Below are positions 3,001 to 53,429 of a stretch of 64,000 nucleotides of DNA, in pieces (position 1 is the stretch's first letter; each line of letters begins with the position of its first letter). Under the pieces are notes generated by a model, which did not search any database, was not told where the DNA came from, and worked only from the letters and a program-made list of their open reading frames with translations. This DNA comes from Mayamaea pseudoterrestris. Taxonomy: Eukaryota. Position numbers and translations under genes: made by a program. The stretch spans positions 1 through 64,000 of the forward strand of contig BROI01000030.1 in assembly GCA_027923505.1 (NCBI GenBank). Reading direction: 5' to 3'.

Positions 3001-6000
3001 CATAATTTGGGGTGTTGGCCACACCCATTTTGCAGATGGTGTAGGCCTCCAGGCAGTCCGTTTTGCACCATTTCAGCCCATCCTCATGTCAATGGCACAC
3101 CCTGGACATGTTTTGCCTGACTCATTGGGTTGTTGGGTGGCCAGGGCATGGGGCATTGTAGTGGTATGATTCCATAATTTGGGGTGTTGGCCACACCCAT
3201 CTTGTAGACCATTCCATGCTGTAGGCCTCCAGGCAGTCCGTTTTGTACCATGTCAGACCATCCTATTGTCAATGGCTCACCCTGGACATGTTTTGCATGA
3301 CTCAGGGTTGTTGGGTGGTCAGGGGACGGGGCATTGTAGTGGTATGATTCCATATGGGCCCATGGGAGGATGATCACGGGGGCAGTGGACCATAATTTGG
3401 GGTGTTGGCCACACCCATCTTGTAGACCATTCCATGCTGTAGGCCTCCAGGCAGTCCGTTTTGTACCATGTCAGACCATCCTCATGTCAATGGCACACCC
3501 TGGACATGTTTTGCATGACTCATTGGGTTGTTGGGTGATCAGGGGATGGGGCATTGTAGTGGTATGATTCCATAATTTGGGGTGTTGGCCACACCCATTT
3601 TGCAGATGGTGTAGGCCTCCAGGCAGTCCGTTTTGCACCATTTCAGCCCATCCTCATGTCAATGGCACACCCTGGACATGTTTTGCCTGACTCATTGGGT
3701 TGTTGGGTGGCCAGGGCATGGGGCATTGTAGTGGTATGATTCCATAATTTGGGGTGTTGGCCACACCCATCTTGTAGACCATTCCATGCTGTAGGCCTCC
3801 AGGCAGTCCGTTTTGTACCATGTCAGACCATCCTCATGTCAATGGCACACCCTGGACATGTTTTGCATGACTCATTGGGTTGTTGGGTGATCAGGGACGG
3901 GGCATTGTAGTGGTATGATTCCATAATTTGGGGTGTTGGCCACACCCATTTTGCAGATGGTGTAGGCCTCCAGGCAGTCCGTTTTGCACCATTTCAGCCC
4001 ATCCTCATGTCAATGGCACACCCTGGACATGTTTTGCCTGACTCATTGGGTTGTTGGGTGGCCAGGGCATGGGGCATTGTAGTGGTATGATTCCATAATT
4101 TGGGGTGTTGGCCACACCCATCTTGTAGACCATTCCATGCTGTAGGCCTCCAGGCAGTCCGTTTTGTACCATGTCAGACCATCCTCATGTCAATGGCACA
4201 CCCTGGACATGTTTTGCATGACTCATTGGGTTGTTGGGTGATCAGGGGAGGGGGCATTGTAGTGGTATGATTCCATAATTTGGGGTGTTGGCCACACCCA
4301 TTTTGCAGATGGTGTAGGCCTCCAGGCAGTCCGTTTTGCACCATTTCAGCCCATCCTCATGTCAATGGCACACCCTGGACATGTTTTGCCTGACTCATTG
4401 GGTTGTTGGGTGGCCAGGGCATGGGGCATTGTAGTGGTATGATTCCATAATTTGGGGTGTTGGCCACACCCATCTTGTAGACCATTCCATGCTGTAGGCC
4501 TCCAGGCAGTCCGTTTTGTACCATGTCAGACCATCCTCATGTCAATGGCACACCCTGGACATGTTTTGCATGACTCATTGGGTTGTTGGGTGATCAGGGG
4601 ACGGGGCATTGTAGTGGTATGATTCCATAATTTGGGGTGTTGGCCACACCCATTTTGCAGATGGTGTAGGCCTCCAGGCAGTCCGTTTTGCACCATTTCA
4701 GCCCATCCTCATGTCAATGGCACACCCTGGACATGTTTTGCCTGACTCATTGGGTTGTTGGGTGGCCAGGGCATGGGGCATTGTAGTGGTATGATTCCAC
4801 AATTTGGGGTGTTGGCCACACCCATCTTGTAGACCATTCCATGCTGTAGGCCTCCAGGCAGTCCGTTTTGTTCCATGTCAGACCATCCTCATGTCAATGG
4901 CACACCCTGGACATGTTTTGCATGATTCATTGGGTTTTTGGGTGATCAGGGGACGGGGCATTGTAGTGGTATGATTCCATAATTTGGGGTGTTGGCCACA
5001 CCCATTTTGCAGATGGTGTAGGCCTCCAGGCAGTCCGTTTTGCACCATTTCAGCCCATCCTCATGTCAATGGCACACCCTGGACATGTTTTGCCTGACTC
5101 ATTGGGTTGTTGGGTGGCCAGGGCATGGGACATTGTAGTGGTATGATTCCATAATTTGGGGTGTTGGCCACACCCATCTTGTAGACCATTCCATGCTGTA
5201 GGCCTCCAGGCAGTCCGTTTTGTACCATGTCAGACCATCCTCATGTCAATGGCACACCCTGGACATGTTTTGCATGACTCATTGGGTTGTTGGGTGATCA
5301 GGGGACGGGGCATTGTAGTGGTATGATTCCATAATTTGGGGTGTTGGCCACACCCATTTTGCAGATGGTGTAGGCCTCCAGGCAGTCCGTTTTGCACCAT
5401 TTCAGCCCATCCTCATGTCAATGGCCCACCCTGGACATGTTTTGCCTGACTCATTGGGTTGTTGGGGGGCCAGGGCATGGGGCATTGTAGTGGTATGATT
5501 CCATAATTTGGGGTGTTGGCCACACCCATCTTGTAGACCATTCCATGCTGTAGGCCTCCAGGCAGTCCGTTTTGTACCATGTCAGACCATCCTCATGTCA
5601 ATGGCACACCCTGGACATGTTTTGCATGACTCATTGGGTTGTTGGGTGATCAGGGGACGGGGCATTGTAGTGGTATGATTCCATAATTTGGGGTGTTGGC
5701 CACACCCATTTTGCAGATGGTGTAGGCCTCCAGGCAGTCCGTTTTGCACCATTTCAGCCCATCCTCATGTCAATGGCACACCCTGGACATGTTTTGCATG
5801 ACTCATTGGGTTGTTGGGTGGCCAGGGCATGGGGCATTGTAGTGGTATGATTCCATAATTTGGGGTGTTGGCCACACCCATTTTGCAGATGGTGTAGGCC
5901 TCCAGGCAGTCCGTTTTGCACCATTCAGGCCAACCTCCTGGTCAATGGCCCACCCTGGACATGTTTTGCCTGACTCATTGGGTTGTTGGGGGGCCAGGGC

Positions 6001-9000
6001 ATGGGGCATTGTAGTGATATGATTCCATAATTTGGGGTGTTGGCCACACCCATCTTGTAGACCATTCCATGCTGTAGGCCTCCAGGCAGTCCGTTTTGTA
6101 CCATGTCAGACCATCCTCATGTCAATGGCACACCCTGGACATGTTTTGCATGACTCATTGGGTTGTTGGGTGATCAGGGGACGGGGCATTGTAGTGGTAT
6201 GATTCCATAATTTGGGGTGTTGGCCACACCCATTTTGCAGATGGTGTAGGCCTCCAGGCAGTCCGTTTTGCACCATTTCAGCCCATCCTCATGTCAATGG
6301 CACACCCTGGACATGTTTTGCATGACTCATTGGGTTGTTGGGTGGCCAGGGCATGGGGCATTGTAGTGGTATGATTCCACAATTATTCACCCATTTTGCA
6401 GATGGTGTAGGCCTCCAGGCAGTCCGTTTTGCACCATTTCAGCCCATCCTCATGTCAATGGCACACCCTGGACATGTTTTGCATGACTCATTGGGTTGTT
6501 GGGTGGCCAGGGCATGGGGCATTGTAGTGGTATGATTCCACAATTTGGGGTGTTGGCCACACCCATCTTGTAGACCATTCCATGCTGTAGGCCTCCAGGC
6601 AGTCCTTTTTGTACCATGTCAGACCATCCTCATGTCAATGGCACACCCTGGACATGTTTTGCATGACTCATTGGGTTGTTGGGTGATCAAGGGACGGGGC
6701 ATTGTAGTGGTATGATTCCATAATTTGGGGTGTTGGCCACACCCATTTTGCAGATGGTGTAGGCCTCCAGACAGTCCGTTTTGCACCATTTCAGCCCATC
6801 CTCATGTCAATGGCACACCCTGGACATGTTTTGCCTGACTCATTGGGTTGTTGTGTACCATGTCAGACCATCCTCATGTCAATGGCACACCCTGGACATG
6901 TTTTGCATGACTCATTGGGTTGTTGGGTGATCAGGGGATGGGGCATTGTAGTGGTATGATTCCATAATTTGGGGTGTTCGCCACACCCATTTTGCAGATG
7001 GTGTAGGCCTCCAGGCAGTCCGTTTTGCACCATTTCAGCCCATCCTCATGTCAATGGCACACCCTGCACATGTTTTGCCTGACTCATTGGGTTGTTGGGT
7101 GGCCAGGGCATGGGGCATTGTAGTGGTATGATTCCATAATTTGGGGGCCACACCCATCTTGGCCACTCCATAGGCCTCCAGGCGTTTTGTACCATGTCAG
7201 ACCATCCTCATGTCAATGGCACCCACTGGACATGTTTTGCATGACTCATTGGGTTGTTGGGTGACCAGGGGACGGGGCATTGTAGTGGTATGATTCCATA
7301 ATTTGGGGTGTTGGCCACACCCATTTTGCAGATGCTGTAGGCCTCCAGGCAGTCCGTTTTGCACCATTTCAGCCCATCCTCATGTCAATGGCACACCCTG
7401 GACATGTTTTGCCTGACTCATTGGGTTGTTTGGTGGCCAGGGCATGGGGCATTGTAGTGGTATGATTCCATAATTTGGGGTGTTGGCCACACCCATCTTG
7501 TAGACCATTCCATGCTGTAGGCCTCCAGGCAGTCCGTTTTGTACCATGTCAGACCATCCTCATGTCAATGGCACACCCTGGACATGTTTTGCATGACTCA
7601 TTGGGTTGTTGGGTGACCAGGGGATGGGGCATTGTAGTGGTATGATTCCATAATTTGGGGTGTTGGCCACACCCATCTTGTAGACCATTCCATGCTGTAG
7701 GCCTCCAGGCAGTCCGTTTTGTACCATGTCAGACCATCCTCTTGTCAATGGCACACCCTGGACATGTTTTGCATGACTCATTGGGTTGTTGGGTGATCAG
7801 GGGACGGGGCATTGTAGTTGTATGATTCCATAATTTGGGGTGTTGGCCACACCCATTTTGCAGATGGTGTAGGCCTCCAGGCAGTCCGTTTTGTACCATT
7901 TCAGCCCATCCTCATGTCAATGGCACACCCTGGACATGTTTTGCCTGACTCATTGGGTTGTTGGGTGGCCAGGGCATGGGGCATTGTAGTGGTATGATTC
8001 CATAATTTGGGGTGTTGGCCACACCCATCTTGTAGACCATTCCATGCTGTAGGCCTCCAGGCAGTCCGTTCTGTACCATGTCAGACCATCCTCATGTCAA
8101 TGGCACACCCTGGACATGTTTTGCATGACTCATTGGGTTGTTGGGTGATCAGGGGACGGGGCATTGTAGTGGTATGATTCCATAATTTGGGGTGTTGGCC
8201 ACACCCATTTTGCAGATGGTGTAGGCCTCCAGGCAGTCCGTTTTTGCACCATTTCAGCCCATCCTCATGTCAATGGCACACCCTGGACATGTTTTGCCTG
8301 ACTCATTGGGTTGTTGGGTGGCCAGGGCATGGGGCATTGTAGTGGTATGATTCCATAATTTGGGGTGTTGGCCACACCCATCTTGTAGACCATTCCATGC
8401 TGTAGGCCTCCAGGCAGTCCGTTTTGTACCATGTCAGACCATCCTCATGTCAATGGCACACCCTGGACATGTTTTGCATGACTCATTGGGTTGTTGGGTG
8501 ATCAGGGGACGGGGCATTGTAGTGGTATGATTCCATAATTTGGGGTGTTGGCCACACCCATTTTGCAGATGGTGTAGGCCTCCAGGCAGTCCGTTTTGCA
8601 CCATTTCAGCCCATCCTCATGTCAATGGCACACCCTGGACATGTTTTGCCGGACTCATTGGGTTGTTGGGTGGCCAGGGCATGGGGCATTGTAGTGGTAT
8701 GATTCCATAATTTGGGGTGTTGGCCACACCCATCTTGTAGACCATTCCACGCTGTAGGCCTCCAGGCAGTCCGTTTTGTACCATGTCAGACCATCCTCAT
8801 GTCAATGGCACACCCTGGACATGTTTTGCATGACTCATTGGGTTGTTGGGTGATCAGGGGACGGGGCATTGTAGTGGTATGATTCCATAATTTGGGGTGT
8901 TGGCCACACCCATTTTGCAGATGGTGTAGGCCTCCAGGCAGTCCGTTTTGTACCATGTCAGACCATCCTCATGTCAATGGCACACCCTGGACATGTTTTG

Positions 9001-9509
9001 CATGACTCATTGGGTTGTTGGGTGATCAGCCAGGGCATGAGGGGTATGATTCATTGTAGGGGTTTTTGGGTGTTGGCCACACCCTTTTTGCAGATGGTGT
9101 AGGCCTCCAGGCAGTCCGTTTTGCACCATTTCAGTCCATCCTCATGTCAATGGCACACCCTGGACATGTTTGGCCTGACTCATTGGGTTGTTGGGTGGCC
9201 AGGGCATGGGGCATTGTAGTGGTATGATTCCATAATTTGGGGTGTAGGCCACACCCATCTTGTAGACCATTCCATGCTGTAGGCCTCCAGGCAGTCCGTT
9301 TTGTACCATGTCAGACCATCCTCATGTCAATGGCACACCCTGGACATGTTTTGCATGACTCATTGGGTTGTTGGGTGATCAGGGGACGGGGCATTGTAGT
9401 GGTATGATTCCATAATTTGGGGTGTTGGCCACACCCATTTTGCAGATGGTGTAGGCCTCCAGGCAGTCCGTTTTGCACCATTTCAGCCCATCCGCATGTC
9501 AATGGCACA
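1..9509. repeat. Satellite A array 1 (~27 copies of a 352-bp dimer: 172-bp A1 + 180-bp A2)
   Basis: Anchor gtagtggtatgattcc recurs at 1, 173, 353, 525, 705 (alternating 172/180 spacing). A1 carries cccattttgcagatggtgtagg...ggtggccagggcatgggg; A2 carries cccatcttgtagaccattccatgctgtagg...ggtgatcaggggacgggg. Confidence 0.98.
9494..9509 (+). repeat. Left target-site duplication of the retrotransposon (gcatgtcaatggcaca)
   Basis: Same 16-mer at 16849-16864. Both copies start with G where the satellite consensus has T (cctcatg). Confidence 0.9.
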
Positions 9510-9519
9510 ATAATAATAA
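9510..9519 (-). repeat. 3' trinucleotide tail (TTA)n of the retrotransposon
   Basis: The + strand reads ataataataa directly after the left TSD. Confidence 0.8.
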
Positions 9520-9529
9520 CTCACGGATT

Positions 9530-9555
9530 TAGTAGTTAGTTTACCTACACTACTA
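9530..9555 (-). promoter_or_regulatory. Putative 3'-UTR stem-loop just upstream of the tail
   Basis: Minus-strand RNA is UAGUAGU-G-UAG-GUAAA-CUA-ACUACUA: 7+3 bp stem, one bulge, 5-nt loop, about 10 nt before the tail. Confidence 0.5.
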
Positions 9556-9824
9556 GCCTTGCGGCTTTAACGCCGCTCCCGTCATCAGTGTGGAAGACCG
9601 GTGAATCGGACCCCGAAGGGCTACCCGAAAGTGGGAGACGGCAAAAAGGGTCATGGTTGCAGCAAGAGTATATCAGACGTAGAACGAACGGAACAGAACG
9701 CAGATCAATTTGGCGTCGCAGATTGATTGCCATACCGCATTCAGAGAAACAGACTTGGGTCGTCATTCACCAAGATGGTACTTGAAGAAACCTGACAAGA
9801 GGAACATATAGTGGGTGGAGAAAC

Positions 9825-12800
9825 CTACATAGAGGTCAATCCAGGGGTGGTTGTTGTTGTTGTTGTGGTCGGTTGGAAGAGTCGGCGCATCAGGTCTTGC
9901 TGCCGTAGGTGTACTCGTTCCGCCGGTGTTTGTTGTTGAAGAAGAAGGCGTTCCGTCTGGACTTGGTACAGCCAAGCTTCAATTTGTGATGGTAATCGTG
10001 AACGAATGCGTGTGAGCCCGGGCTGGAAAAGGCGCCGTAGGCGTGCTGAGGAGTTCGTACCCCATGGTTGGAGGAATTCATGATCAACTTGTCGTTGCAG
10101 TTCTTGAACGCGCAAGCCGTTGTTCCTCCTGTGGAGCGCATCATTGCGATGCTCCCAGAGATCCCAGGAGATATCAAATAGTTTGCGGTAAGTTGGGAAA
10201 GCCAGCGGAGCCCATTATGATACGGTTTGGAGGACCGTGAGCGATAGTGAATTTCTTGTAGGTCGGACCATCCTTTCGAGAATCGGCCTTCAAATGCCGC
10301 CAGCCAACCAAGCTGTAGTTGACTATGAAGCAGCTGATGAAGGGATATGTCATCTATAGTCGGCGGGTCAGAATGTGTGCGCCAGGCAGCGAGAGAGCTA
10401 ATGATGGCCACCCGTAAATTGGAGGCAGTGCCCACTGTCATGAGCCATGTGTCGAGATCATCCAGACGTTCGTCCCAAAGTGCCTGGGTACTGGGGCAGG
10501 TGTAGAGATGTTCCACCGTCTCCTCAATTGTTACAGGAGGGGTCTGCGTCAAACAGGTGGGACAAGTGTCTTCCGTGGAATGGTGGCGCAGTTTCAAGCG
10601 ACGCCTGACGGCAACAAACTTGGAGATAAGCTTGGATTGATGCAGCCGGCGCGATGGAGACAACAATTGCATAGCTTTGCCCGTCGCTTCCCAGTCAACA
10701 TGATTTGGAGTCGAGGAACCAAATTTATCCTTTGTTTGCCAGTAATCCAGAAGGGGTTTGCCATTAATTTGGAGTCGAAGAGCCGCGTCAAGGCCAGAAC
10801 AAATCTTGTCATTCGCAATGAGCACGGGCGGTAGCTCACCAAACAGAAATTGTGGCGACACCGTGGTGGGTGAGTCGGCATAAAGCACCCTGTGTGCCTT
10901 GGCGGCGGCATCCATTTCATCGTTGAGCAGTGCCCACCGGTCGAGCGGGCCAATGAATTGATTGCCATCCAGGCCTTTCTCCCGCTGATGGCCCAGGACA
11001 TGGTGAGTGAGCCACACAATAGGAGTATCGTGCATTAGACGTCGGCACGCTGAGATGAGATCAAATTGCTTCTGGCCAAGAGGAGTGGGTTTGTCACAGG
11101 AGGAAGCTTGTTTCAGTGCGGACAGGCCATCGCACGCAATGGTAATGGAGCCGGATGTAACACCATAGTGCCGACAGAGCAAATGCACCAAAAGAATAGC
11201 CTGGTACAATCCAACCAGCTCACTGCGATAAGCACTTTGGACCTGCGCTGGTCCGGGGCATACACACTGCGCGGTAATAGCGCCCGCGGCTGAGGAGCCC
11301 TGAAGCGTGACAGCTGCCGCCCCAGTTCGGCGATGAGGATCAAAGGAGCCGTCACTCACAGCAATACAAGTGCCATCTCGTAGGGCGGAAACAATCAGTT
11401 GACAGTTATGCTCAGTGAGATCAGTGTGATCCAGAACCCAGTGTGTCCGGGGGAAAAGCATGGCCCGCAGCGACTCCAGCAAGGGTTCGGTGGCCACGGC
11501 CTGAGCAAGAGATGATTCACCATAGCTTTCCAAGCTGACAGAGCAATGCGTAACCCGACGGACAGTGGCACGCTGAAGGTTGAGTGAGGGACCTGCCCAT
11601 TCGTGACGGCCACTGTACACTGCCACGCGACGCCTGCGGCCAGTACCACTGTAAGCAAACTTGTACCACTTGTCGTCAAGACATTCAAATACCTCATCCG
11701 TCCGCGGACTGTAGAAGAACCGAGTAGTAGGTTCATCCGCATGCCAGAGGCCAAGCGAACGGTGCAGGCGTCGTTGTGGCGAGCAGAACACTTGAAGAAG
11801 GGCCAATCGCCAGGTATCCCAGCAGCGTTCAGAGAGTTCTCCCTGGAGAGGCCAATCATACACTGAGTTGCAAGTGCTGTCGCGAGCGCCATACCATGCA
11901 CATTCTGTGATATAGTTGCCATCGCCAGAGGTGATATCAGAGAGAGAAACCACCTGGAGGAACATGCGACAGCGATTGAGGATGGACAACGTCGAGGAAG
12001 GAAGAGAAGACAATGCAAATTGCTCCATAAGAAGGAGATCGCCAGCGCGTCGACAGCTGAAATCAGGGAGTGAATCGTGCACTGATATTCCATGTTGATG
12101 GCAACTTTGCCATGTAAATGACACCCAACTCGTGGTAACAACCGGGGACAGCCGATCATAGTTGTGCGAGAAAAGAAAGCCATTCAGCCCTAGTTCCAAT
12201 TTAAGTAGCTCCATACTGACCTGAAGCAGCTGAGATGTATTCCTCGTTGGGAGTTCCGCGGCAAACGCTATCACTTCCAAGTGTGCGTATAGCTGGGCGA
12301 CAAACAGGTCTCGAAATCCCAACCCTTGCACTGCAAGTGGCGCGCATCGCAAAACTGTCGGAGCATCACTGCCGACCCCAGAAAGTTGAAGCGCTGCCGT
12401 TAAAGATGGGCTCTGGATATATGCAGTCTGTTTGGGTGTGAGGCACGTCGCCACCAGAGGGTAGGACAGAGCTTTATCAATGGTCGTGGAGTAGGCCACG
12501 GCAGCCAGATGGCGAGGAAGGCGGCTGTGACGTAGAGACCGCGCCCAATCCACTGATTTCTTGCGCAGAACCAATGCTTGAGTGTCATTGCAGCCATCAG
12601 GGGAAAGATAAATGCCCAATGTCCGTTCCGCATGATTGACCGGACAGCGTTTGATGGTTTGAACATTGCCATGCATGTCTTTGACAGAGAGCGTTGCTGG
12701 ACACTCGCGTTCGTGTTTGTATGACCAGGAGCCATCGGAATGCCATTTGTAATCAATAAGATACCAGAAAGTCTTCTCAGGTGCAATGGCGCCGCCGGTC

Positions 12801-14218
12801 GCGCGTAGTCCACCTTCCCAATGGTCCAGGGAGCGTTGCATGTCGGATGCTACCAAAGCGTAATCTGTCAGATGTGAGCCGCAAATACCAAGATCAGTAT
12901 CATCGACAAAGGAATAGCCAACAAAGGAGACGGTGGAGCCAGACAAAGTGCAGCGATACGACATGCCGAGCCCTTCAGCACGAAGCATGTTTAACAAGGG
13001 CGTGGAGACAAGTGCCCAAATCTGTGGCGCCGCCCCGTTGCCTTGCCCAATAGTTGAAACCGGCACAGCAAACAGTTCCAAGCTTTCAATGCCTCCGAAG
13101 TATGTAGTCGAGTCGCCGAAAACGGTGCGAATATAGTGCTCCAGCTTCTGGATTGTGGAGAAGATACATACAACAGCCGGTTTGGACACTCCCACCCGCT
13201 GCAGGTAGAGCGACGCCACAGAGTGGACAATGCGATCATAGCAAGCACGTGCATCATTGGAGCAGAGGGCCATGACCCGGCGTAGCTGGCGCGAGATGTC
13301 AAATGACAATTGTTTCTCCAGCCCCAAATAGTTGGCCCGATGACCCTTGCGAGAACCCCCTTGCTCTTTGGCCAAGAGGCCATGTGCTTCGGCTTCTGAC
13401 ATCATACATTTTCCAAGGTTCTTAAAGCTATGATTTGCAATGCAATCAAACAGGCAGATGGCGCGCAGTTTGTCCACCTGGAAGTTTCCCGCCTTTTTCT
13501 CAATCAAAACATCAATTGCTTTGTGCCAAGAGCTCGGAGGGCATCCTGTGAGCATTGGGATGTACTCCAGTTGCCGATGCATCTCCGCAAGTGCTGGATC
13601 CTGCATGCTCGCCATCATATGGCCAAAATGGCGTCCAGGGAAAGCAGCAGTACGCTCGGATTGTCGCCGCCATCGGTACTGAAAGGTGGGCAAGTCTGGA
13701 ATGTGATCGACGTAGGAGTGGCGAAGGGACTCCGCGCGTGGCAGCTGACGAAGGAGTTTGACAGCATATTCGGAAACTCCAGACAGGTCTTCCTCTGTGA
13801 CCGAGCCATCCAGTATGCGGTCACAGAAGGGAGTGACGCCAAGAGTGCCGACGCGCTCAAATAATGGAGGATGAGAGGAGGATGAGATGCGGCAGGCTTC
13901 GAACCAGCCCTTCGTTCTTGCATCCAGACAATGATGGCTAGAGACATGTCGCCAGTTCACATTCACTTCAGACAAACCAATGACATCTATACGATTTTTA
14001 TTAACTATACTGCGGACCAGACAGTCTTTGCACGAGCCGCATGCTCTGACTCCGGAGCAAACAGGTACCACCTGTAGACCACCAATATTAACAAACAACA
14101 ACCGAACATGATCGCCTACTGGTTCAAGCAGCTCATGTCCGTGAAGACCTTTACTCTCCGCGCGAGAAAAGGCCGGACTGGAAAAGGCATTTTGGGAAGA
14201 TCGTCCACCGCTTCCCAT
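9825..14218 (-). pseudogene. LINE ORF2 polyprotein: truncated APE endonuclease, reverse transcriptase, RNase H, C-terminal CCHC finger; 1-bp frameshift near 10188
   Basis: APE N-terminus: RLLFVNIGGL and IDVIGLSEVNVNW. RT: KLRAICLFD, EQGGSRKGH, SNDARACYDRIVH, GQGNGAAP, SFVDD (12899-12910), GGAIAPEKT. RNase H: AVSDGSF (~11350), SAYRSELVGL, IACDGLSAL, HVLGHQ, LNDEMDAAAK. Zinc finger: CPTC-x14-H-x3-C (~10495-10564). The conserved KLFDISWDLWEHRNDALH motif lies in the frame of the 9825..10115 ORF. Start is uncertain: the frame is open to 14326, and the ATG at 14218 follows the ORF1 stop. Confidence 0.9.
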
Positions 14219-14229
14219 GCCTTGTCGAC

Positions 14230-14922
14230 TCACAGGTCTGGGCCACCCCTCGTGCTTTGAGAGGCAGCCATTGACGCTGATGTAGGTTGTTGTTGGGAGG
14301 AGCTCGATCGGAGTCGTGATCCCCATCCTCCTGGTGGTGGCATTGGTGGGTATGGAGCTGGAGGTCCCACAATGCGCACAGTAGTAGTAGTCGTTGTTGT
14401 TGTTGGCTCGGGTGAAGACGGGTTGCCGTGCCCGTCTGTAGGCATGTCGTCAATCGCCATCATTTCTGAAGGCTCGCTTGCTGCCATTTCATCCTCGAAA
14501 GCGCGCTGCTCGCGCATGGTTTGATGCATCCGTTCCACAGGATCCTCAAACAAATCCACGTCCTCGTCGTATCCGTCCAGTAGTGGTAGATCGGCAGGAT
14601 AATCATCTTCCATCAGAGTTGGAGACTCCGAGTCGTCGCTCATCTCGTCGTCATCCGGCGGACGCTTCAGTAGTTGTACCTTAGACTGCTGAAGGGGTTT
14701 TGGTGAACGAGGACGGCGCGTAGAGTCGTCCATTGCTGGAGGCGCCGGTTCATCATCGGCTCCAAAAAGGCGGCGGCGCCCATCAGTGTCTGACGTAGGT
14801 GGTGCTTCATCCACTGACTGTTCAGTTGCAGGCGTGCCGCCTTCCAGAGAGGCAAACTTTGCGACTAAAGTTGCCAGCGTCGCCTGAGTCTCCATCAATT
14901 GAAGTTGAAGCCCATCTACCAA
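14230..14922 (-). CDS. LINE ORF1, C-terminal part (predicted coiled coil, then acidic and Pro/Thr-rich low-complexity region)
   Basis: 230-aa ORF directly upstream of ORF2. The frame stays open upstream (LRLAAAEKKAALVDGLQLQLMETQATLATL) into the satellite-like mosaic at ~14966. Confidence 0.65.
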   Translation of the reverse strand: MVDGLQLQLMETQATLATLVAKFASLEGGTPATEQSVDEAPPTSDTDGRRRLFGADDEPAPPAMDDSTRRPRSPKPLQQSKVQLLKRPPDDDEMSDDSESPTLMEDDYPADLPLLDGYDEDVDLFEDPVERMHQTMREQRAFEDEMAASEPSEMMAIDDMPTDGHGNPSSPEPTTTTTTTTVRIVGPPAPYPPMPPPGGWGSRLRSSSSQQQPTSASMAASQSTRGGPDL

Positions 14923-15193
14923 AGCAGCCTTCTTTTCAGCCGCCGCGAGACGAAGCTTTGTTGCGACTAGCCAGGCATTCCACCTGACGTGTGTGCGCGA
15001 CCTGAAGAGATGTTGCGCACGATGCTGCGTGTGATTGCGGGCACCTACGGGCCTGCTGCCCAGCGGGACAAGTCATGGCCTGACGCATGCTGCAGAGACC
15101 TGGCGCCAAGTTGGCTCAGCCCGAATATCAATCGCCGTCCCCTGAGACACTCGCCAGGCGGATACCACTGTAGGGCAGTGTCTTAAATAATGA

Positions 15194-16399
15194 TCATAGT
15201 GGCAATCGTGTCTGGTCGACATTTGGGAAAGCTGGCGCAATGAGGCGGGGCGCAAAATGTTTGATGAGCGCATATAGATGCGGAATGACAGTGCGAACCC
15301 GCGACTGGTTGCTACTATGGTAGACACAGCGGACTCGTCCCAATGCCGTGACATTTACTTGTTCAAACAAGTAGAGAAGGCCCGTGTGGACCGGATCGTG
15401 CGCCGTAATGTCCATCATGATGCTACGGATATTGAACATGGTAAAGCCTGGAATAAGTGGACCGTCCAGATCCTCGAAAAAGCTGAGAATGTCGGTGCGC
15501 TGGTGGCGGTCAACTGTTGCCTTGTGCCATTTGAGGAGCGCGAGGCGCGTCTCTTGGGAGTCTTCCTCCGCTGTAAGTGTAGGAGCAAACGTTGCGCGAA
15601 TGCCGGCCGGGTATCGGCGGCCTGGAATGACTCCTGCAGGGAACATAGCAGTCAGTCGGTCGCTGGCCGTCCGAGCATCCTTTTCGTTCACCTCGAGGTG
15701 CCATGCTCGAATGGGATCGTATGTAACTTTCTCAAGTTTGTCTGCAGCATCCAACACAAGCGCACCATCCGTTTTGGACATATAGCCCAGATTCGCTGGA
15801 AAGACACTGCAAGGGAGTCCAATACAGGCCTCGATTTCTCGCCGGTAGCGATCGTTGTCGACATCAGAGTCGAAGGGATGATTCTGAAAGTAGCCAAGCT
15901 TGATCTTTGACTCCGACTGAAGGCAACTCGCGCTAATCTTGTAGTCCGTGTTCCGCTTGTCAAAGAAGTACTTGTGAAGCATTGTAGCGGCTGTCTTTGG
16001 GTCGCGAAACGGCTCGCTTTCGCTGCAGTCATATCCGACGTAAATCCTCGCCCAAATCCAAACCGCATACTTCGGGTTGCTCGGCTCGTAGAGATACGTC
16101 GTATGGAGAAGCGGCCAGTCGGCAAACTTGAACGAGTGGAGGTCCATGGCTTTAATGTGTTCCTGGTCGCGTGTTTCACATGAATGCCATGGATAAATGA
16201 GGAGGTCTCGTCCTTGGGGATATGTTTTTAGACACCAGTCGTCGAGCTTGGAAAAGATGGCATGGATATTCTTGCGCGCCATCGCTGCACTTGTATCGTA
16301 GTCACCATCAAAGAGCCCTTTGGTCCCGATAAGGAAGCGATGTTGTACATGGCGCGGCTTCTGTTCAGCTTCTGAAAGTCTTTCCCCTGTCATTGGCAT
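15194..16399 (-). CDS. LINE ORF1, N-terminal/central part; no recognisable domain
   Basis: 401-aa ORF with protein-like composition inside the element, same strand as ORF2. Both ends fall in satellite-like mosaic segments, so the true start and the join to 14922 are uncertain. Confidence 0.7.
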   Translation of the reverse strand: MPMTGERLSEAEQKPRHVQHRFLIGTKGLFDGDYDTSAAMARKNIHAIFSKLDDWCLKTYPQGRDLLIYPWHSCETRDQEHIKAMDLHSFKFADWPLLHTTYLYEPSNPKYAVWIWARIYVGYDCSESEPFRDPKTAATMLHKYFFDKRNTDYKISASCLQSESKIKLGYFQNHPFDSDVDNDRYRREIEACIGLPCSVFPANLGYMSKTDGALVLDAADKLEKVTYDPIRAWHLEVNEKDARTASDRLTAMFPAGVIPGRRYPAGIRATFAPTLTAEEDSQETRLALLKWHKATVDRHQRTDILSFFEDLDGPLIPGFTMFNIRSIMMDITAHDPVHTGLLYLFEQVNVTALGRVRCVYHSSNQSRVRTVIPHLYALIKHFAPRLIAPAFPNVDQTRLPL

Positions 16400-16848
16400 C
16401 CCCTGGACACTTCATTTCGGCGGCGGCAATTGTGGTGTTGATTCCATTTGGGGTCGTTCCCCTTCTGCTCCTCCGGGAGTCGTTTGAATGTTACCATCTG
16501 CAGCCCATCCTCGGCGACAATGGCACACCCTGGACATGTTTTGCCTGACTCAATGGGTTGTTGGGTGGCCATGGGCATGAAAAGTTGATTGTAGTGCTTG
16601 AAATTGTGGGTTGGAACCCATCTATGGGGCATGTGCCTACAGGGCGTCTGGCTGTCTGTCGTCGCAAAATCGTCGCGAGTCGTTCTCTGCGGGAACTGTT
16701 TCAATTGAAAAATTTCTTCAATATAATGATCTTTCAAGGTATAAGCTGACTTGTTTGGTGCATTAGAATATTGGTTGTTGATGTTAGAGAGGGATTACTA
16801 TGGGGAAATATGGTGACGCATCAACGGCACTCCGTGTCGCAGAATTAT

Positions 16849-16864
16849 GCATGTCAATGGCACA
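16849..16864 (+). repeat. Right target-site duplication (gcatgtcaatggcaca)
   Basis: Identical to 9494-9509. Followed by ccctggacatgttttgcctgac, which resumes the interrupted A1 monomer in phase. Confidence 0.9.
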
Positions 16865-19196
16865 CCCTGGACATGTTTTGCCTGACTCATTGGGTTGTTG
16901 GGTGGCCAGGGCATGGGGCATTGTAGTGGTATGATTCCATAATTTGGGGTGTTGGCCACACCCATCTTGTAGACCATTCCATGCTGTAGGCCTCCAGGCA
17001 GTCCGTTTTGTACCATGTCAGACCATCCTCATGTCAATGGCACACCCTGGACATGTTTTGCATGACTCATTGGGTTGTTGGGTGATCAGGGGACGGCATT
17101 AGGTATGATTCCATAATTTGGGGTGTTGGCCACACCCATTTTGCAGATGGTGTAGGCCTCCAGGCAGTCCGTTTTGCACCATTTCAGCCCATCCTCATGT
17201 CAATGGCACACCCTGGACATGTTTTGCCTGACTCAATGGGTTGTTGGGTGGCCAGGGCATGGGGCATTGTAGTGGTATGATTCCATAATTTGGGGTGTTG
17301 GCCACACCCATCTTGTAGACCATTCCATGCTGTAGGCCTCCAGGCAGTCCGTTTTGTACCATGTCAGACCATCCTCATGTCAATGGCACACCCTGGACAT
17401 GTTTCGCATGACTCATTGGGTTGTTGGGTGATCAGGGGACGGGGCATTGTAGTGGTATGATTCCATAATTTGGGGTGTTGGCCACACCCATTTTGCAGAT
17501 GGTGTAGGCCTCCAGGCAGTCCGTTTTGCACCATTTCAGCCCATCCTCATGTCAATGGCACACCCTGGACATGTTTTGCCTGACTCATTGGGTTGTTGGG
17601 TGGCCAGGGCATGGGGCATTGTAGTGGTATGATTCCATAATTTGGGGTGTTGGCCACACCCATCTTGTAGACCATTCCATGCTGTAGGCCTCCAGGCAGT
17701 CCGTTTTGTACCATGTCAGACCATCCTCATGTCAATGGCACACCCTGGACATGTTTTGCATGACTCATTGGGTTGTTGGGTGATCAGGGGACGGGGCATT
17801 GTAGTGGTATGATTCCATAATTTGGGGTGTTGGCCACACCCATTTTGCAGATGGTGTAGGCCTCCAGGCAGTCCGTTTTGCACCATTTCAGCCCATCCTC
17901 ATGTCAATGGCACACCCTGGACATGTTTTGCCTGACTCATTGGGTTGTTGGGTGGCCAGGGCATGGGGCATTGTAGTGGTATGATTCCATAATTTGGGGT
18001 GTTGGCCACACCCATCTTGTAGACCATTCCATGCTGTAGGCCACAAGGCAGTCCGTTTTGTACCATGTCAGCCCATCCTCATGTCAATGGCACACCCTGG
18101 ACATGTTTTGCATGACTCATTGGGTTGTTGGGTGATCAGGGGACGGGGCATTGTAGTGGTATGATTCCATAATTTGGGGTGTTGGCCACACCCATTTTGC
18201 AGATGGTGTAGGCCTCCAGGCAGTCCGTTTTGCACCATTTCAGCCCATCCTCATGTCAATGGCACACCCTGGACATGTTTTGCCTGACTCATTGGGTTGT
18301 TGGGTGGCCAGGGCTTGGGGCATTGTAGTGGTATGATTCCATAATTTGGGGTGTTGGCCACAATCATCTTTTTGACCATTCCATGCTGTAGGCCTCCAGG
18401 CAGTCCGTTTTGCACCATGTCAGACCATCCTTATGTCAATGGCACACCCTGGACATGTTTTGCATGACTCATTGGGTTGTTGGGAGATCAGGGGACGGGG
18501 CATTGTAGTGGTATGATTCCATAATTTGGGGTGTTGGCCACACCCATTTTGCAGATGGTGTAGGCCTCCAGGCAGTCCGTTTTGCACCATTTCAGCCCAT
18601 CCTCATGTCAATGGCACACCCTGGACATGTTTTGCCTGACTCATTGGGTTGTTGGGTGGCCAGGGCATGGGGCATTGTAGTGGTATGATTCCATAATTTG
18701 GGGTGTTGGCCACACCCATCTTGTAGACCATTCCATGCTGTAGGCCTCCAGGCAGTCCGTTTTGTACCATTTCAGCCCATCCTCATGTCAATGGCACACC
18801 CTGGACATGTTTTGCATGACTCATTGGGTTGTTGGGTGATCAGGGGATGGGGCATTGTAGTGGTATGATTCCATAATTTGGGGTGTTGGCCACACCCATC
18901 TTGTAGACCATTCCATGCTGTAGGCCTCCAGGCAGTCCGTTTTGTACCATGTCCGACCATCCTCATGTCAATGGCACACCCTGGACATGTTTTGCATGAC
19001 TCATTGGGTTGTTGGGTGATCAGGGGACGGGACATTGTAGTGGTATGATTCCATAATTTGGGGTGTTGGCCACACCCATTTTGCAGATGGCGTAGGCCTC
19101 CAGTCCGTTTTGCACCATGTCAGCCCATCCTCATGTCAATGGCACACCCTGGACATGTTTTGCCTGACTCATTGGGTTGTTGGGTGGCCAGGGCAT
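16849..19196. repeat. Satellite A array 1, continued after the insertion (~6.5 dimers)
   Basis: Same 172/180 dimer and orientation; ends at ...ggtggccagggcat. Confidence 0.98.
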
Positions 19197-22100
19197 CACC
19201 AATATCATTGCCGTCCCCTGAGACACTAGCCAGGCATACCATCTTGTTGCGCAGCCTGAATAATGATGTTGGCACCATTCTGGTGTCATTTGGGTGTATA
19301 CATGGCCTGCTGTAGGGGCATTTGAATGTCATGGCATCTGCAGGCTGAGACTGGTGACAAGTCGTCACCAATATCATTGCCATCCCCTGAGACACTAGCC
19401 AGGCATACCATCTTGTAGCGCAGCCTGAATAATGATGTTGGCACCATTCTGGTGTCATTTGGGTGTATACATGGCCTGCTGTAGGGGCATTTGAATGTCA
19501 CGGCATCTGCGGGCTGAGACTGGTGACAAGTTGTCACCAATATCATTGCCGTCCCCTGAGACACTAGCCAGGCATACCATCTTGTAGCGCAGCCTGAATA
19601 ATGATGTTGGCACCATTCTGGTGTCATTTGGGTATACTCATGGCCTGCTGTAGGGGCGTTTGAATGTCACGGCATCTGCAGGCTGAGACTGGTGACAAGT
19701 TGTCACCAATATCATTGCCGTCCCCTGAGACACTAGCCAGGCATACCATCTTGTAGCGCAGCCTGAATAATGATGTTGGCACCATTCTGGTGTCATTTGG
19801 GTGTATACATGGCCTGCTGTAGGGGCGTTTGAATGTCACGGCATCTGCAGGCTGAGACTGGTGACAAGTTGTCACCAATATCATTGCCGTCCCCTGAGAC
19901 ACTAGCCAGGCATACCATCTTGTAGCGCAGCCTGAATAATGATGTTGGCACCATTCTGGTGTCATTTGGGTGTATACATGGCCTGCTGTAGGGGCGTTTG
20001 AATGTCACGGCATCTGCGGGCTGAGACTGGTGACAAGTTGTCACCAATATCATTACCGTCCCCTGAGACACTAGCCAGGCATACCATCTTGTAGCGCAGC
20101 CTGAATAATGATGTTGGCACCATTCTGGTGTTATTTGGGTACATACAGGGCCTGCTGTAGGGGCGTTTGAATGTCACGGCATCTGCAGGCTGAGACTGGT
20201 GACAAGTTGTCACCAATATCATTGCCATCCCCTGAGACACTAGCCAGGCATACCATCTTGTAGCGCAGCCTGAATAATGATGTTGGCACCATTCTGGTGT
20301 CATTTGGGTGTATACATGGCCTGCTGTAGGGGCGTTTGAATGTCACGGCATCCGCGGGCTGAGACTGGTGACAAGTTGTTACCAATATCATTGCTGTCCC
20401 CTGAGACAATAGCTAGGCATACCATCTTGTTGCGCAGTTTGTATAATGATGTTGGCACCATTCTGGTGTCATTTGGGTGTATACATGGCCTGCTGTACGG
20501 TAGGGGCGTTTGAATGTCACGGCATCTGCGGGCTGAGACTGGTGACAAGTTGTCACCAATATCATTGCCATCCCCTGAGACACTAGCCAGGCATACCATC
20601 TTGTAGCGCAGCCTGAATAATGATGTTGGCACCATTCTGGTGTCTTTTGGGCACCTACAGGGCCTGCTGTAGGGGCGTTTGAATGTCACGGCATCTGCAG
20701 GCTGAGACTGGTGACAAGTTGTCACCAATATCATTGCCGTCCCCTGAGACACTAGCCAGGCATACCATCTTGTAGCGCAGCCTGAATAATGATGTTGGCA
20801 CCATTCTGGTGTCATTTGGGTGTATACATGGCCTGCTGTAGGGGCGTTTGAATGTCACGGCATCTGCAGGCTGAGACTGGTGACAAGTTGTCACCAATAT
20901 CATTGCCGTCCCCTGAGACACTAGCCAGGTATACCATCTTGTAGCGCAGCCTGAATAATGATGTTGGCACCATTCTGGTGTCATTTGGGTGTATACATGG
21001 CCTGCTGTAGGGGCGTTTGAATGTCACGGCATCTGCAGGCTGAGACTGGTGACAAGTTGTCACCAATATCATTGCCGTCCCCTGAGACACTAGCCAGGCA
21101 TACCATCTTGTAGCGCAGCCTGAATAATGATGTTGGCACCATTCTGGTGTCATTTGGGTGTATACATGGCCTGCTGTAGGAGCATTTGAATGTCACGGCA
21201 TCTGCAGGCTGAGACTGGTGACAAGTTGTCACCAATATCATTGCCGTCCCCTGAGACACTAGCCAGGCATACCATCTTGTAGCGCAGCCTGAATAATGAT
21301 GTTGGCACCATTCTGGTGTCATTTGGGTGTATACATGGCCTGCTGTAGGGGCGTTTGAATGTCACGGCATCTGCAGGCTGAGACTGGTGACAAGTTGTCA
21401 CCAATATCATTGCCATCCCCTGAGACACTAGCCAGGCATACCATCTTGTTGCGCAGCCTGTATAATTATTTTGGCACCATTCTTGTGTCATTTGGGTGTA
21501 CCATGGCCTGCTGTAGGGGCGTTTGAATGTCACGGCATCTGCGGGCTGAGACTGGTGACAAGTTGTCACCAATATCATTGCCGTCCCCTGAGACACTAGC
21601 CAGGCATACCATCTTGTAGCGCAGCCTGAATAATGATGTTGGCACCATTCTGGTGTCATTTGGGTGTATACATGGCCTGCTGTAGGGGCATTTGAATGTC
21701 ACGGCATCTGCGGGCTGAGACTGGTGACAAGTTGTCACCAATATCATTGCCGTCCCCTGAGACACTAGCCAGGCATACCATCTTGTAGCGCAGCCTGAAT
21801 AATGATGTTGGCACCATTCTGGTGTCATTTGGGTGTATACATGGCCTGCTGTAGGGGCGTTTGAATGTCACGGCATCTGCAGGCTGAGACTGGTGACAAG
21901 TTGTCACCAATATCATTGCCGTCCCCTGAGACACTAGCCAGGCATACCATCTTGTAGCGCAGCCTGAATAATGATGTTGGCACCATTCTGGTGTATTTTG
22001 GGCACCTACATGGCCTGCTGTAGGGGCATTTGAATGTCACGGCATCTGCGGGCTGAGACTGGTGACAAGTTGTCACCAATATCATTGCCGTCCCCTGAGA

Positions 22101-25100
22101 CACTAGCCAGGCATACCATCTTGTAGCGCAGCCTGAATAATGATGTTGGCACCATTCTGGTGTCTTTTGGGCGCATACAGGGCCTGCTGTAGGGGCGTTT
22201 GAATGTCACGGCATCTGCAGGCTGAGACTGGTGACAAGTTGTCACCAATATCATTGCCGTCCCCTGAGACACTAGCCAGGCATACCATCTTGTTGCGCAG
22301 CCTGAATAATGATGTTGGCACCATTCTGGTGTCATTTGGGTGTATACATGGCCTGCTGTAGGGGCGTTTGAATGTCACGGCATCTGCAGGCTGAGACTGG
22401 TGACAAGTTGTCACCAATATCATTGCCGTCCCCTGAGACACTAGCCAGGCATACCATCTTGTAGCGCAGCCTGAATAATGATGTTGGCACCATTCTGGTG
22501 TCATTTGGGTGTATACATGGCCTGCTGTAGGGGCGTTTGAATGTCACGGCATCTGCAGGCTGAGACTGGTGACAAGTTGTCACCAATATCATTGCCGTCC
22601 CCTGAGACACTAGCCAGGCATACCATCTTGTTGCGCAGCCTGAATAATGATGTTGGCACCATTCTGGTGTCATTTGGGTGTATACATGGCCTGCTGTAGG
22701 GGCATTTGAATGTCACGGCATCTGCAGGCTGAGACTGGTGACAAGTTGTCACCAATATCATTGCCGTCCCCTGAGACACTAGCCAGGCATACCATCTTGT
22801 AGCGCAGCCTGAATAATGATGTTGGCACCATTCTGGTGTCATTTGGGTGTATACATGGCCTGCTGTAGGGGCGTTTGAATGTCACGGCATCTGCAGGCTG
22901 AGACTGGTGACAAGTTGTCACCAATATCATTGCCGTCCCCTGAGACACTAGCCAGGCATACCATCTTGTTGCGCAGCCTGAATAATGATGTTGGCACCAT
23001 TCTGGTGTCATTTGGGTGTATACATGGCCTGCTGTAGGGGCGTTTGAATGTCACGGCATCTGCGGGCTGAGACTGGTGACAAGTTGTCACCAATATCATT
23101 GCTGTCCCCTGAGACACTAGCCAGGCATACCATCTTGTAGCGCAGCCTGAATAATGATGTTGGCACCATTCTGGTGTCATTCGGCTGCCTACATGGCCTG
23201 CTGTAGGGGCGTTTGAATGTCACGGCATCTGCAGGCTGAGACTGGTGACAAGTTGTCACCAATATCATTGCCATCCCCTGAGACACTAGCCAGGCATACC
23301 ATCTTGTAGCGCAGCCTGAATAATGATGTTGGCACCATTCTGGTGTCATTTGGGTGTATACATGGCCTGCTGTAGGGGCGTTTGAATGTCACGGCATCTG
23401 CAGGCTGAGACTGGTGACAAGTTGTCACCAATATCATTGCCGTCCCCTGAGACACTAGCCAGGCATACCATCTTGTAGCGCAGCCTGAATAATGATGTTG
23501 GCACCATTCTGGTGTCATTTGGGTGTATACATGGCCTGCTGTAGGGGCGTTTGAATGTCACGGCATCTGCAGGCTGAGACTGGTGACAAGTTGTCACCAA
23601 TATCATTGCCGTCCCCTGAGACACTAGCCAGGCATACCATCTTGTAGCGCAGCCTGAATAATGATGTTGGCACCATTCTGGTGTCATTTGGGTGTATACA
23701 TGGCCTGCTGTAGGGGCGTTTGAATGTCACGGCATATGCTAGACGTCAAGCACAAGGCATACCATCTTGTAGCGCAGATGGCACTCTAGGGTATACATGG
23801 CCTGCTGTAGGGGCGTTTGAATGTCACGGCTGAGGCTGAGACTGGTGACAAGTTGTCACCAATATCATTGCCATCCCCTGAGACACTAGCCAGGCATACC
23901 ATCTTGTAGCGCAGCCTGAATAATGATGTTGGCACCATTCTGGTGTCATTTTGGTGTACTACATGGCCTGCTGTAGGGGCGTTTGAATGTCACGGCATCT
24001 GCAGGCTGAGACTGGTGACAAGTTGTCACCAATATCATTGCCGTCCCCTGAGACACTAGCCAGGCATACCATCTTGTAGCGCAGCCTGAATAATGATGTT
24101 GGCACCATTCTGGTGTCATTTGAGCGCCTACATGGCCTGCTGTAGGGGCGTTTGAATGTCACGGCATCTGCAGGCTGAGACTGGTGACAAGTTGTCACCA
24201 ATATCATTGCCGTCCCCTGAGACACTAGCCAGGCATACCATCTTGTAGCGCAGCCTGAATAATGATGTTGGCACCATTCTGGTGTCATTTGGGTGTATAC
24301 ATGGCCTGCTGTAGGGGCATTTGAATGTCACGGCATCTGCAGGCTGAGACTGGTGACAAGTTGTCACCAATATCATTGCCGTCCCCTGAGACACTAGCCA
24401 GGCATACCATCTTGTAGCGCAGCCTGAATAATGATGTTGGCACCATTCTGGTGTCATTTGGGTGTACCTACATGGCCTGCTGTAGGGGCGTTTGAATGTC
24501 ACGGCATCTGCAGGCTGAGACTGGTGACAAGTTGTCACCAATATCATTGCCGTCCCCTGAGACACTAGCCAGGCATACCATCTTGTAGCGCAGCCTGAAT
24601 AATGATGTTGGCACCATTCTGGTGTCATTTGGGTGTATACAGGGCCTGCTGTAGGGGCGTTTGAATGTCACGGCATCTGCAGGCTGAGACTGGTGACAAG
24701 TTGTCACCAATATCATTGCCGTCCCCTGAGACACTAGCCAGGCATACCATCTTGTAGCGCAGCCTGAATAATGATGTTGGCACCATTCTGGTGTCATTTG
24801 GGTGTATACATGGCCTGCTGTAGGGGCGTTTGAATGTCACGGCATCTGCAGGCTGAGACTGGTGACAAGTTGTCACCAATATCATTGCCGTCCCCTGAGA
24901 CACTAGCCAGGCATACCATCTTGTAGCGCAGCCTGAATAATGATGTTGGCACCATTCTGGTGTCATTTGGGTGTATACATGGCCTGCTGTAGGGGCGTTT
25001 GAATGTCACGGCATCTGCAGGCTGAGACTGGTGACAAGTTGTCACCAATATCATTGCCGTCCCCTGAGACACTAGCCAGGCATACCATCTTGTAGCGCAG

Positions 25101-32580: not shown

Positions 32581-32869
32581 ATGGCACCCCTGGATGCAGA
32601 CTAGTTGCACCTATATATTGGTCACACCCATGGCCCTGAGACACCAGCCATTGCAACCATTTCAGCCCATACTCATGTAATGGAATGGCATGTTTTGCCT
32701 GACTCATTGGGTTGTTGGGCGCATGGCCAGGGCTTAGGGGCGATTGAATGGTACATAATTTGGGGTGACTGGTGACACAGTTGTAACTCATTCCATGCCT
32801 GAGCCTCCAGCCAGTCCATTTTGTAGCACCCATGTCAGACCATCCTCATGTTGGCACCCTGGACCAGTT

Positions 32870-52600: not shown

Positions 52601-53411
52601 AGGCTGAGACTGGTGACAAGTTGTCACCAATATCATTGCTGTCCCCGGAGACACTAGCCAGGCATACCATCTTGTAGCGCAGCCTGAATAATGATGTTGG
52701 CACCATTCTGGTGTATTTTGGGTATCTACAGGGCTTGCTGTAGGGGCGTTTGAATGTCACGGCATCTGCAGGCTGAGACTGGTGACAAGTTGTCACCAAT
52801 ATCATTGCTGTCCCCTGAGACACTAGCCAGGCATACCATCTTGTAGCGCAGCCTGAATAATGATGTTGGCACCATTCTGATGTCATTTGGGTGTATTAAA
52901 TGCCTGCTGTAGGGGCGTTTGAATGTCACGGCATCTGCAGGCTGAGACTGGTGACAAGTTGTCACCAATATCATTGCCGTCTCCTGAGACACCAGCCAAG
53001 CCTACCATCTTGTAGCGCAGCTTGAATAATAATGTTGGCACCAGTCTGGTGTAATTTGGGCACCTACAGGGCTTGCTGTAGGTGCGTTTAATGTCACGAC
53101 ATCTGCGGGCTGAGACTGGTGACAAGTTGTCACCAAATACATTGCCATGCCCTGAGACACCAGTCAAGCAAACCAACTTGTAGCGCAGCCACAATAATAA
53201 TGGTGGCACCATTCGGGTGTATTTTGGGCACCTACAGGGCTTCCTGTAGGGGCGTTTGAATGTCACGTCATCTGCGGGCTGAGACTGGTGACAAGTTGTC
53301 ACCAAATACATTGCCATGCCCTGAGACACCAGCCTAGCCTACCATCTTGTAGCGCAGCCTGAATAATGATGTTAGCACCATTCTGGTGTCATTTGGGTAT
53401 ATACATGGCCT
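34650..53411. repeat. Satellite B array 2 (169-bp monomer, ~110 copies); heavily degenerate at ~41500-46620
   Basis: Same unit and orientation as array 1. Near-perfect copies at 48300-52600; ends at ...atacatggcct. Confidence 0.97.
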
Positions 53412-53429
53412 AGTTAGGGTTAGGGTTAG
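53412..53429 (+). repeat. Interstitial telomere-type repeat ag(TTAGGG)2TTAG at the B-to-A junction
   Basis: Sequence reads catggcct|agttagggttagggttag|tgggttgttgggtgatc. The insert belongs to neither satellite. Confidence 0.8.

Follow-up and report, generated by a model that had tools for sequence, protein, structure and literature searches.

A probable recent insertion of a two-ORF non-LTR retrotransposon in satellite DNA of Mayamaea pseudoterrestris, apparently intact in read sets and lesioned at four sites in the record

The 64-kb stretch analysed here (positions 1 to 64,000 of contig BROI01000030.1, assembly GCA_027923505.1, Mayamaea pseudoterrestris; hereafter the window) consists nearly entirely of tandem repeats of two satellites, A and B (table 1), and its only long unique block, between 9510 and 16848, is marked by a shift in AT skew and by long open reading frames (ORFs) on the minus strand. 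This block is a non-LTR (long terminal repeat) retrotransposon, or long interspersed element (LINE), of 7,339 nt, which lies on the minus strand and interrupts one monomer of satellite A. By taking into account the anatomy of the insertion, the relatives of the encoded proteins and the contigs of read sets, it is probable that a two-ORF element was inserted here once and recently, that it measures approximately 9.0 kb and is apparently intact in the read sets, that the copy in the record carries four lesions of its own, and that no aiming at the satellite was involved.

The element is bordered by two copies of GCATGTCAATGGCACA, identical at 16 of 16 bases, and both copies carry a G that is private to this locus: elsewhere in the window, the 15-mer CATGTCAATGGCACA is preceded by T in 114 of 114 cases, and never by G. 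The presence of the private G in both copies therefore points to one parent monomer, and to a true 16-bp target-site duplication (TSD) rather than to the periodicity of the satellite. Removal of the element together with one TSD copy restores the usual monomer, with the 21-mer across the rebuilt site found 106 times elsewhere, and joins the L1 to the R1 context. As L1-R1 is the normal pairing in the arrays (42 instances vs 3 of L1-R2), the dimer of satellite A continues in phase. Neither LTRs nor terminal inverted repeats are found in the element, and the combination of a TSD, a simple-repeat 3′ tail and no terminal repeats is that of a non-LTR retrotransposon. An earlier note on this DNA, made from the sequence alone, had described an insertion with both ends present, a perfect 16-bp TSD with a private variant, a monomer that resumes in phase and a young age. 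All of this is confirmed, with the 3′ motif common to relatives (see below) joining the TSD on both sides as evidence for the two ends, and the lack of any mismatch to read contigs over the aligned parts joining the perfect TSD as evidence for the age.

On its own strand, the element ends in ...AAATCCGTGAG(TTA)3T, that is, in ...GTGAG(TTA)3T. In 80 metagenome loci with relatives (31-46% identity to ORF2), a pattern search found a 3′ motif and tail in 18 cases, and 16 metagenome relatives were aligned with the window. In this alignment, the AATC..TG.GTTATT columns are invariant or nearly so and are followed by (TTA)n or (TTTA)n, a hallmark that the end of the element fits and that, being common to the relatives, fixes the 3′ boundary. 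Such conservation suggests that the reverse transcriptase (RT) probably recognises the 3′ end of its own RNA. A hairpin of 3-5 bp follows TTAAA in 15 of the 17 aligned 3′ ends, as stems common by chance may do (no control was run), and RNAalifold predicted no pairs for the 17 sequences. When satellites A and B and the unique ends of the element were compared with the 80 loci, only a 30-nt match in the tail was obtained. TSDs were found in none of the relatives, L075 excepted. In the latter, 20 nt that start 5 nt behind a (TTA)4 tail (L075:10021-10050) are identical to the start of the contig (L075:1-20), which suggests that copies lie head to tail in tandem or that the path of the assembly was circular.

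From this anatomy, a mechanism of insertion by target-primed reverse transcription may be proposed. The plus strand of a satellite-A monomer would be nicked after ...CAATGGCACA, the 3′ OH at the nick would prime the copying of an RNA ending in GUGAG(UUA)n, and a staggered second cut 16 bp away would generate the TSD. The element would encode an ORF1 protein resembling RNA recognition motif (RRM) proteins and an ORF2 protein that combines endonuclease, RT, RNase H and a CCHC motif.

The identification of a LINE with RT and RNase H, also made in the earlier note, is borne out by invariant columns, by a fold match and by Pfam families in the relatives. No Pfam family was found in ORF1, ORF2 and two side ORFs of the window, the domains being assigned from relatives, from conserved columns and from a fold. 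ORF2 has 174 relatives at E ≤ 1e-3 (best, 73% identity), and most of the 120 that were listed are 1,600-2,000 aa long, RVT_1 being recorded for many and Exo_endo_phos for some. When ORF2 is aligned with seven relatives, the FVDD motif, the DGS...E...D...H...D series and the CCHC columns are invariant; taken singly, the eight aligned proteins score RVT_1 in six cases and Exo_endo_phos in four. The RT, with 32-60% identity to the aligned relatives, is of the LINE type, and the RNase H domain lies downstream of it, as in the I-like group. An AlphaFold2 model of the RNase H segment, computed together with 22 segments of relatives from metagenome loci, reached a mean pLDDT (predicted local distance difference test) of 86, and a Foldseek comparison of this model with the PDB placed RNase H domains at the top (XMRV RNase H, 3p1g, at E 4.8e-6; 57 matches in all at E ≤ 1e-3). 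In the corresponding alignment of 23 sequences, D48, E92 and D195 are invariant and D122 is nearly so, and the Pfam RNase_H family scores in 11 of the 23. A sequence search of the PDB gave a chance match for ORF2 alone (E 0.31) and no match for a profile of eight relatives.

The read sets described below also contain more divergent relatives, which show 10 mismatches over the conserved RT motif (13445-13516). Two of the metagenome loci contain internal tandem repeats (L066:2882-3396 and L003:2284-2689, with units of 188 and 202 bp and 2.0-2.7 copies), the former just upstream of the ORF2 match and the latter inside it (709-2799). The family may be characterised by repeats of variable length within or beside ORF2.

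ORF1 is far less well represented, a search of 1.84 billion representatives having found only seven relatives, of which four measure 659-881 aa. Its model (pLDDT 77) gives weak matches to RRM/ferredoxin-like folds only: Foldseek returned nothing at E ≤ 1e-3, and the best VIA-align match (the RRM of CFIm68, Z 6.2) is in a range that is rated common, which makes an RRM/ferredoxin-like fold weakly indicated by the model. A tblastn search with ORF1 of the 80 loci gave no match, because the ORF1s of distant relatives are too diverged. In the window, ORF1 ends exactly where the relatives continue into a conserved segment of approximately 120 residues, and the ATKLRLA motif of a separate 230-codon ORF follows this segment in the relatives.

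The statement of the earlier note that ORF2 is open for more than 1300 codons is correct as to the frame, which is open for 1,478 codons, and fails if it is taken to mean that the protein is intact. In a BLASTP alignment with the full-length relative P0047, residues 72-148 of ORF2 correspond to residues 43-111 of P0047, at the start of the endonuclease (its first 70 residues), and residue 154 onwards to 562 onwards, from which it is evident that approximately 450 residues, namely the bulk of the endonuclease and a linker, are missing at about 13876. The copy in the window lacks a functional endonuclease domain. Past residue 1379, ORF2 leaves the conserved frame, and the conserved C-terminus goes on at 10184-9876 in another one. 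An 11-bp unit (GGAGGATGAGA) stands twice in tandem (13866-13887) precisely where the 1,386 nt are deleted. Besides these two lesions, the record contains two patches resembling the satellites, one replacing the conserved middle of ORF1 with a segment similar to satellite B and one similar to satellite A near the 5′ end (table 1).

Read sets allowed these lesions to be evaluated. Two runs from two studies (X1 and X2), one of which is possibly the source sample, contain 97% of the sampled words of 9450-12000. Their contigs were compared with the window over 9440-16920, the extra letters being known by their length only. In all aligned pieces, the X1 and X2 contigs show no other letters, their differences from the window being confined to four places (table 1). 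Each of these coincides with a lesion or a patch and is what intact frames require; for instance, with the additional 113 nt, ORF1 and the 230-codon ORF would form a single frame of 761 codons, within the range of the relatives. A single X2 contig of 9,018 nt extends from 9520 to 16878, and includes 30 letters of the 5′ flank with the private G. The depth of the element in X2 is uniform (17.9), while the summed depth of the flank bins is 1.6e5-5.5e5, a quantity that gives an order of magnitude only and not a copy number. The depths of the bins around 13872-13875 and 15190-15232 equal the contribution of the bridging contig alone; therefore, no X1 or X2 contig carries the window version there. 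Judging from these contigs, the locus in the read sets appears to hold an element of approximately 9.0 kb that looks intact, and the lesions and satellite-like patches of the record would represent either a private degenerate allele or a fault of the assembly. No RNA read set is among those listed as containing the element stretch. Two further runs, X3 and X5, which belong to the same study and are labelled as other organisms, yield short contigs identical to element parts of 9919-13203 at a depth of 2-4 (satellites, 1e3-1e4), which may derive from close strains or species, or from sample carry-over; their stretches with no contig cover were not used.

That errors in the assembly from which the window comes account for all four differences, with the locus really holding the 9.0-kb element, is an explanation to which we give slightly less than an even chance. 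At each of the four sites the window stands alone against X1 and X2 and, for the extra A, against X3 too; all four changes run from intact to broken frames; and the satellite B array at 41989-45639, with 11-14% indels between satellite copies, is perhaps a poor consensus. However, it is difficult to imagine an assembler introducing both divergent satellite-like segments and a clean deletion of 1,386 nt that keeps the frame, while leaving the rest of the element perfect; rare variants may also be lost from contigs, so that the record could show a real minor allele.

Several points weigh against the reading of a single recent insertion that is intact in the read sets and lesioned only in the record. 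The similarities between patches and satellites are statistically real (E about 1e-22 to 1e-26), extending over 87 nt for the A-like patch and over about 230-270 nt for the B-like patch, and both patches are oriented like the arrays next to them. The B-like patch has diverged too far to have simply been copied from adjacent B monomers and is not a near-copy of any B monomer of the window, unlike what a collapsed assembly might produce, which makes an assembly fault not easy to envisage. The base lost at 10188 is not part of a homopolymer run. Furthermore, neither ORF of the window matches a Pfam family, the X2 contig is one letter short of the rule adopted for bridging the 5′ junction, the 3′ junction is left uncovered by the contigs of the element (which end at 9520), and the evidence on copies consists of one window and contig-level read data.

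These features of the patches, and the lost base, speak for a different explanation, in which the patches are real and the locus is a LINE/satellite mosaic that arose by gene conversion, template switching or satellite-templated repair or, alternatively, in which satellites A and B were born from parts of the LINE. We consider this unlikely. In both studies, one of which may cover the source sample, the contigs depart from the window exactly at the limits of the patches, and the window version of 15190-15232 is covered by no contig. The patches replace coding sequence that is conserved in relatives, as seen for the middle of ORF1, and the comparison of relatives' ORF1 with satellite B at the protein level gave only chance-level matches at E ≤ 10. 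It is also hard to reconcile a divergence of 9-28% between the patches and the satellites presumed to have donated them with the lack of any substitution in the rest of 7 kb. That the satellites derive from the LINE is unlikely if the canonical element has no patches. Sequence common to a transposable element and to tandem arrays recalls satellites born from transposable elements (e.g. PMC5932611), with the difference that here the shared segments are absent from the read-set element and take the place of conserved coding sequence. The direction, if the patches are real, is therefore from satellite into element. In its most far-reaching form, this proposal takes the version in the window for a real allele: neighbouring satellites would have overwritten two coding segments of a newly inserted LINE, which would also have lost its endonuclease, an example of satellite-to-LINE flow in which the copy could home to, or persist in, the arrays by homology with no need of its own endonuclease; this is quite improbable.

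The preferred reading of one recent insertion with lesions private to the record also dispenses with aiming. The proposal of the earlier note that the element may target satellites or centromeres found no support, by taking into account that only one locus is seen, that the flanks of the relatives all differ and that the satellite is present in enormous amounts. The 64-kb window contains neither another copy nor another fragment of the element. In the read sets, the summed depth of satellite A is approximately four orders of magnitude above that of the element; therefore, landing and surviving there needs no aiming, and the position of the element most likely reflects the abundance of the satellite and the harmlessness of insertions into it. 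The opposite view, namely that the family aims at satellite A, either site-specifically or by seeking centromeres and perhaps helped by homology of its 5′ region to the target, is very unlikely. In its favour, the one visible copy lies in satellite A, the core of the A-like patch of the window copy includes the target sequence (CAATGGCACA/CCCTGG), and the X2 contig crosses the 5′ junction with no fork, as if all copies had that junction. However, this junction carries the private G found in 0 of 114 monomers, which indicates one locus and not many, and the A-like patch, as such, is absent from the read contigs. In the 17 relatives with a readable flank behind the tail, all flanks differ, with no common target and no tandem repeat of a period of at least 20, bearing in mind that metagenome assemblies break in satellites and that the relatives have only 31-46% identity to ORF2. 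A second short contig of X1 and X2 shares only 9520-9597 with the element (4 mismatches) and is unlike it thereafter; no joint from this contig to a satellite flank is found among the joints listed, which is a weak argument.

Known systems provide a further comparison. R1 and R2 insert in ribosomal DNA and TRAS and SART in telomeric repeats, in each case by many independent insertions at one site. The element resembles them in having a precise junction at a defined position of a tandem repeat, and differs from them in being a single insertion with a private variant, whose relatives have unrelated flanks. G2/Jockey-3 (PMC6516634; bioRxiv 10.1101/2022.11.25.518008) is a centromere-enriched Drosophila LINE, and has in common with the element the location of a non-LTR retrotransposon inside satellite-rich DNA; the pattern described there is one of many copies across centromeres, in contrast to the one locus found here.

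With regard to the clade, the architecture of the element resembles that of the I, Tad1, Loa, R1 and Ingi group. Like these I-type LINEs, of which the Drosophila I factor with its (TAA)n tail is one, it has two ORFs, an ORF2 with an N-terminal apurinic/apyrimidinic endonuclease (APE; in relatives), RT, C-terminal RNase H and CCHC, and a trinucleotide-repeat tail instead of poly(A). Unlike them, its RT and RNase H are, in the window, too diverged to be scored by Pfam, its ORF1 is large and RRM-like (660-880 aa in relatives) and belongs to no known family, and a conserved AATC..TGAG precedes its (TTA)n or (TTTA)n tail. Neighbours in the Atlas that have Pfam labels combine RVT_1, RNase_H and Exo_endo_phos, and the nearest labelled Atlas clusters of ORF2 are diatom clusters, the phylum being known for one member of each. 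As far as these matches tell, the family is common in protist contigs, and its few labelled members are diatoms. The earlier note had called the element Ambal-like. CRE elements use a restriction-like endonuclease and not APE, which would not fit the APE-bearing relatives of the element. The label 'CRE-Ambal', under which RepeatMasker-style naming groups Ambal with CRE (PMC11572971), hints at a kinship between the two. In other papers, Ambal is a LINE clade found only in protists (PMC4438587, the supplement of which has an Ambal column) and LINE/Ambal is reported in a diatom genome (PMC12803021), the nearest labelled clusters of the element being diatom clusters too; two more give lists of LINE classes only (PMC5753468, PMC4455052). 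None of these literature passages on Ambal was found to ascribe to the clade the domain set of APE, RT and RNase H given in the earlier note.

If the plain reading of one recent insertion is right, the window provides, in a satellite array of what is probably a diatom-like protist, a young and well-marked LINE insertion that can serve as a marker, and documents as widespread in environmental contigs a LINE family with APE, RT and RNase H, a (TTA)n tail and a conserved 3′ motif; it would have no bearing on centromere biology. It would also carry a lesson on data quality, in that record and reads differ precisely where stories of satellite capture or endonuclease-free mobility would start, and the satellite-like patches are unfit as evidence for capture, satellite origin or homing until long reads confirm them. 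A mosaic, if true, would be an interesting case of sequence flow from a satellite to a transposon.

Table 1. Features of the window and differences from the read contigs (positions in the window; differences are given as letters in the window, letters in the contigs and net change).
Feature	Positions	Strand	Basis or remarks
Satellite A, 352-bp dimer (172- and 180-bp monomers)	1-9509, 16850-19196, 32651-34649, 53430-64000		
Satellite B, 169-bp unit	19196-32577, 34649-53411		some stretches degraded
Left TSD copy	9494-9509	.	GCATGTCAATGGCACA; private G at 9494
3′ tail, (TTA)3T on element strand	9510-9519	-	relatives end (TTA)n or (TTTA)n
3′ UTR (untranslated region)	9520-9889	-	ends ...AAATCCGTGAG; family motifs TTAAA + short hairpin, AATC..TG.G
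Conserved C-terminal part of ORF2, in other frame than open ORF	9876-10184	-	tblastn of P0004, P0008, P0047
ORF2 as in window, 1,478 codons open	9890-14326	-	
Frameshift site	10188	-	X1, X2, X3 contigs: one more A behind base
CCHC motif (C1255, C1258, H1273, C1277)	10496-10564	-	invariant in 8/8 aligned proteins
RNase H domain, residues 945-1165	10832-11494	-	model, Foldseek, Pfam in relatives
Reverse transcriptase region, ~residues 219-520	12767-13672	-	FVDD at 12899-12910; invariant columns; RVT_1 in 6/8 aligned, not in window protein
Internal deletion junction, inside 11-bp tandem duplication	13871-13876	-	read contigs: 1,390 letters vs 4
Remnant of APE endonuclease N-terminus, residues 72-148	13883-14113	-	BLASTP to P0047; tblastn
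230-codon ORF (C-terminal part of ORF1)	14230-14922	-	coiled-coil motif ATKLRLA as in relatives; overlaps ORF2 start
Satellite-B-like patch, ~1.4 monomers	14966-15227	.	71-73% (BLAST); orientation of arrays; replaces conserved ORF1 middle
ORF1, N-terminal part, 401 codons	15194-16399	-	weak RRM/ferredoxin-like fold matches
Satellite-A-like patch	16470-16623	.	core 16493-16579 (87 nt) ~91% identical; orientation of flanks
Unique 5′ terminal segment	16624-16848	-	X2 contig reads through, 30 nt into flank
Right TSD copy	16849-16864	.	GCATGTCAATGGCACA; same private G at 16849
Contig difference	behind 10188		none; one extra A (also X3); +1
Contig difference	13871/13876		4; 1,390; +1,386 (462 codons)
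Contig difference	14968-15232		265; 378; +113
Contig difference	16382-16636		255; 414; +159 (53 codons)

As to the satellites themselves, A and B have nothing alike beyond 11-mers. A search of 9300-20000 against Rfam at E ≤ 1 gave no matches; therefore, the satellite core corresponds to no known RNA gene. In X1, X2, X3 and X5, most contigs that match the core of satellite A at 16850-16919 (approximately 70 nt) diverge from the window on both sides, and 371 X1 contigs have one common continuation unlike that of the window; from these differing continuations, the core is common to other, more abundant satellite variants in these genomes. Within satellite B, the stretch 41989-45639 shows 73-83% matches and 9-14% indels between copies, in comparison with 0-2% indels in the neighbouring arrays, and is either an old, degraded array or a poor assembly consensus. 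A telomere-type tract, TTAGGGTTAGGGTTAG, lies at 53412-53431, exactly where a satellite B array meets a satellite A array (two overlapping matches in the window vs 0.17 expected by chance); the (TTAGGG)2.5 tract at 53414-53431 is uninformative on centromeres. The A-to-B junctions at 19196 and 34649 are identical over at least 120 nt (...ggccagggcat/CACCAATATCATTGCC...), and the A-B block was therefore duplicated as a unit.

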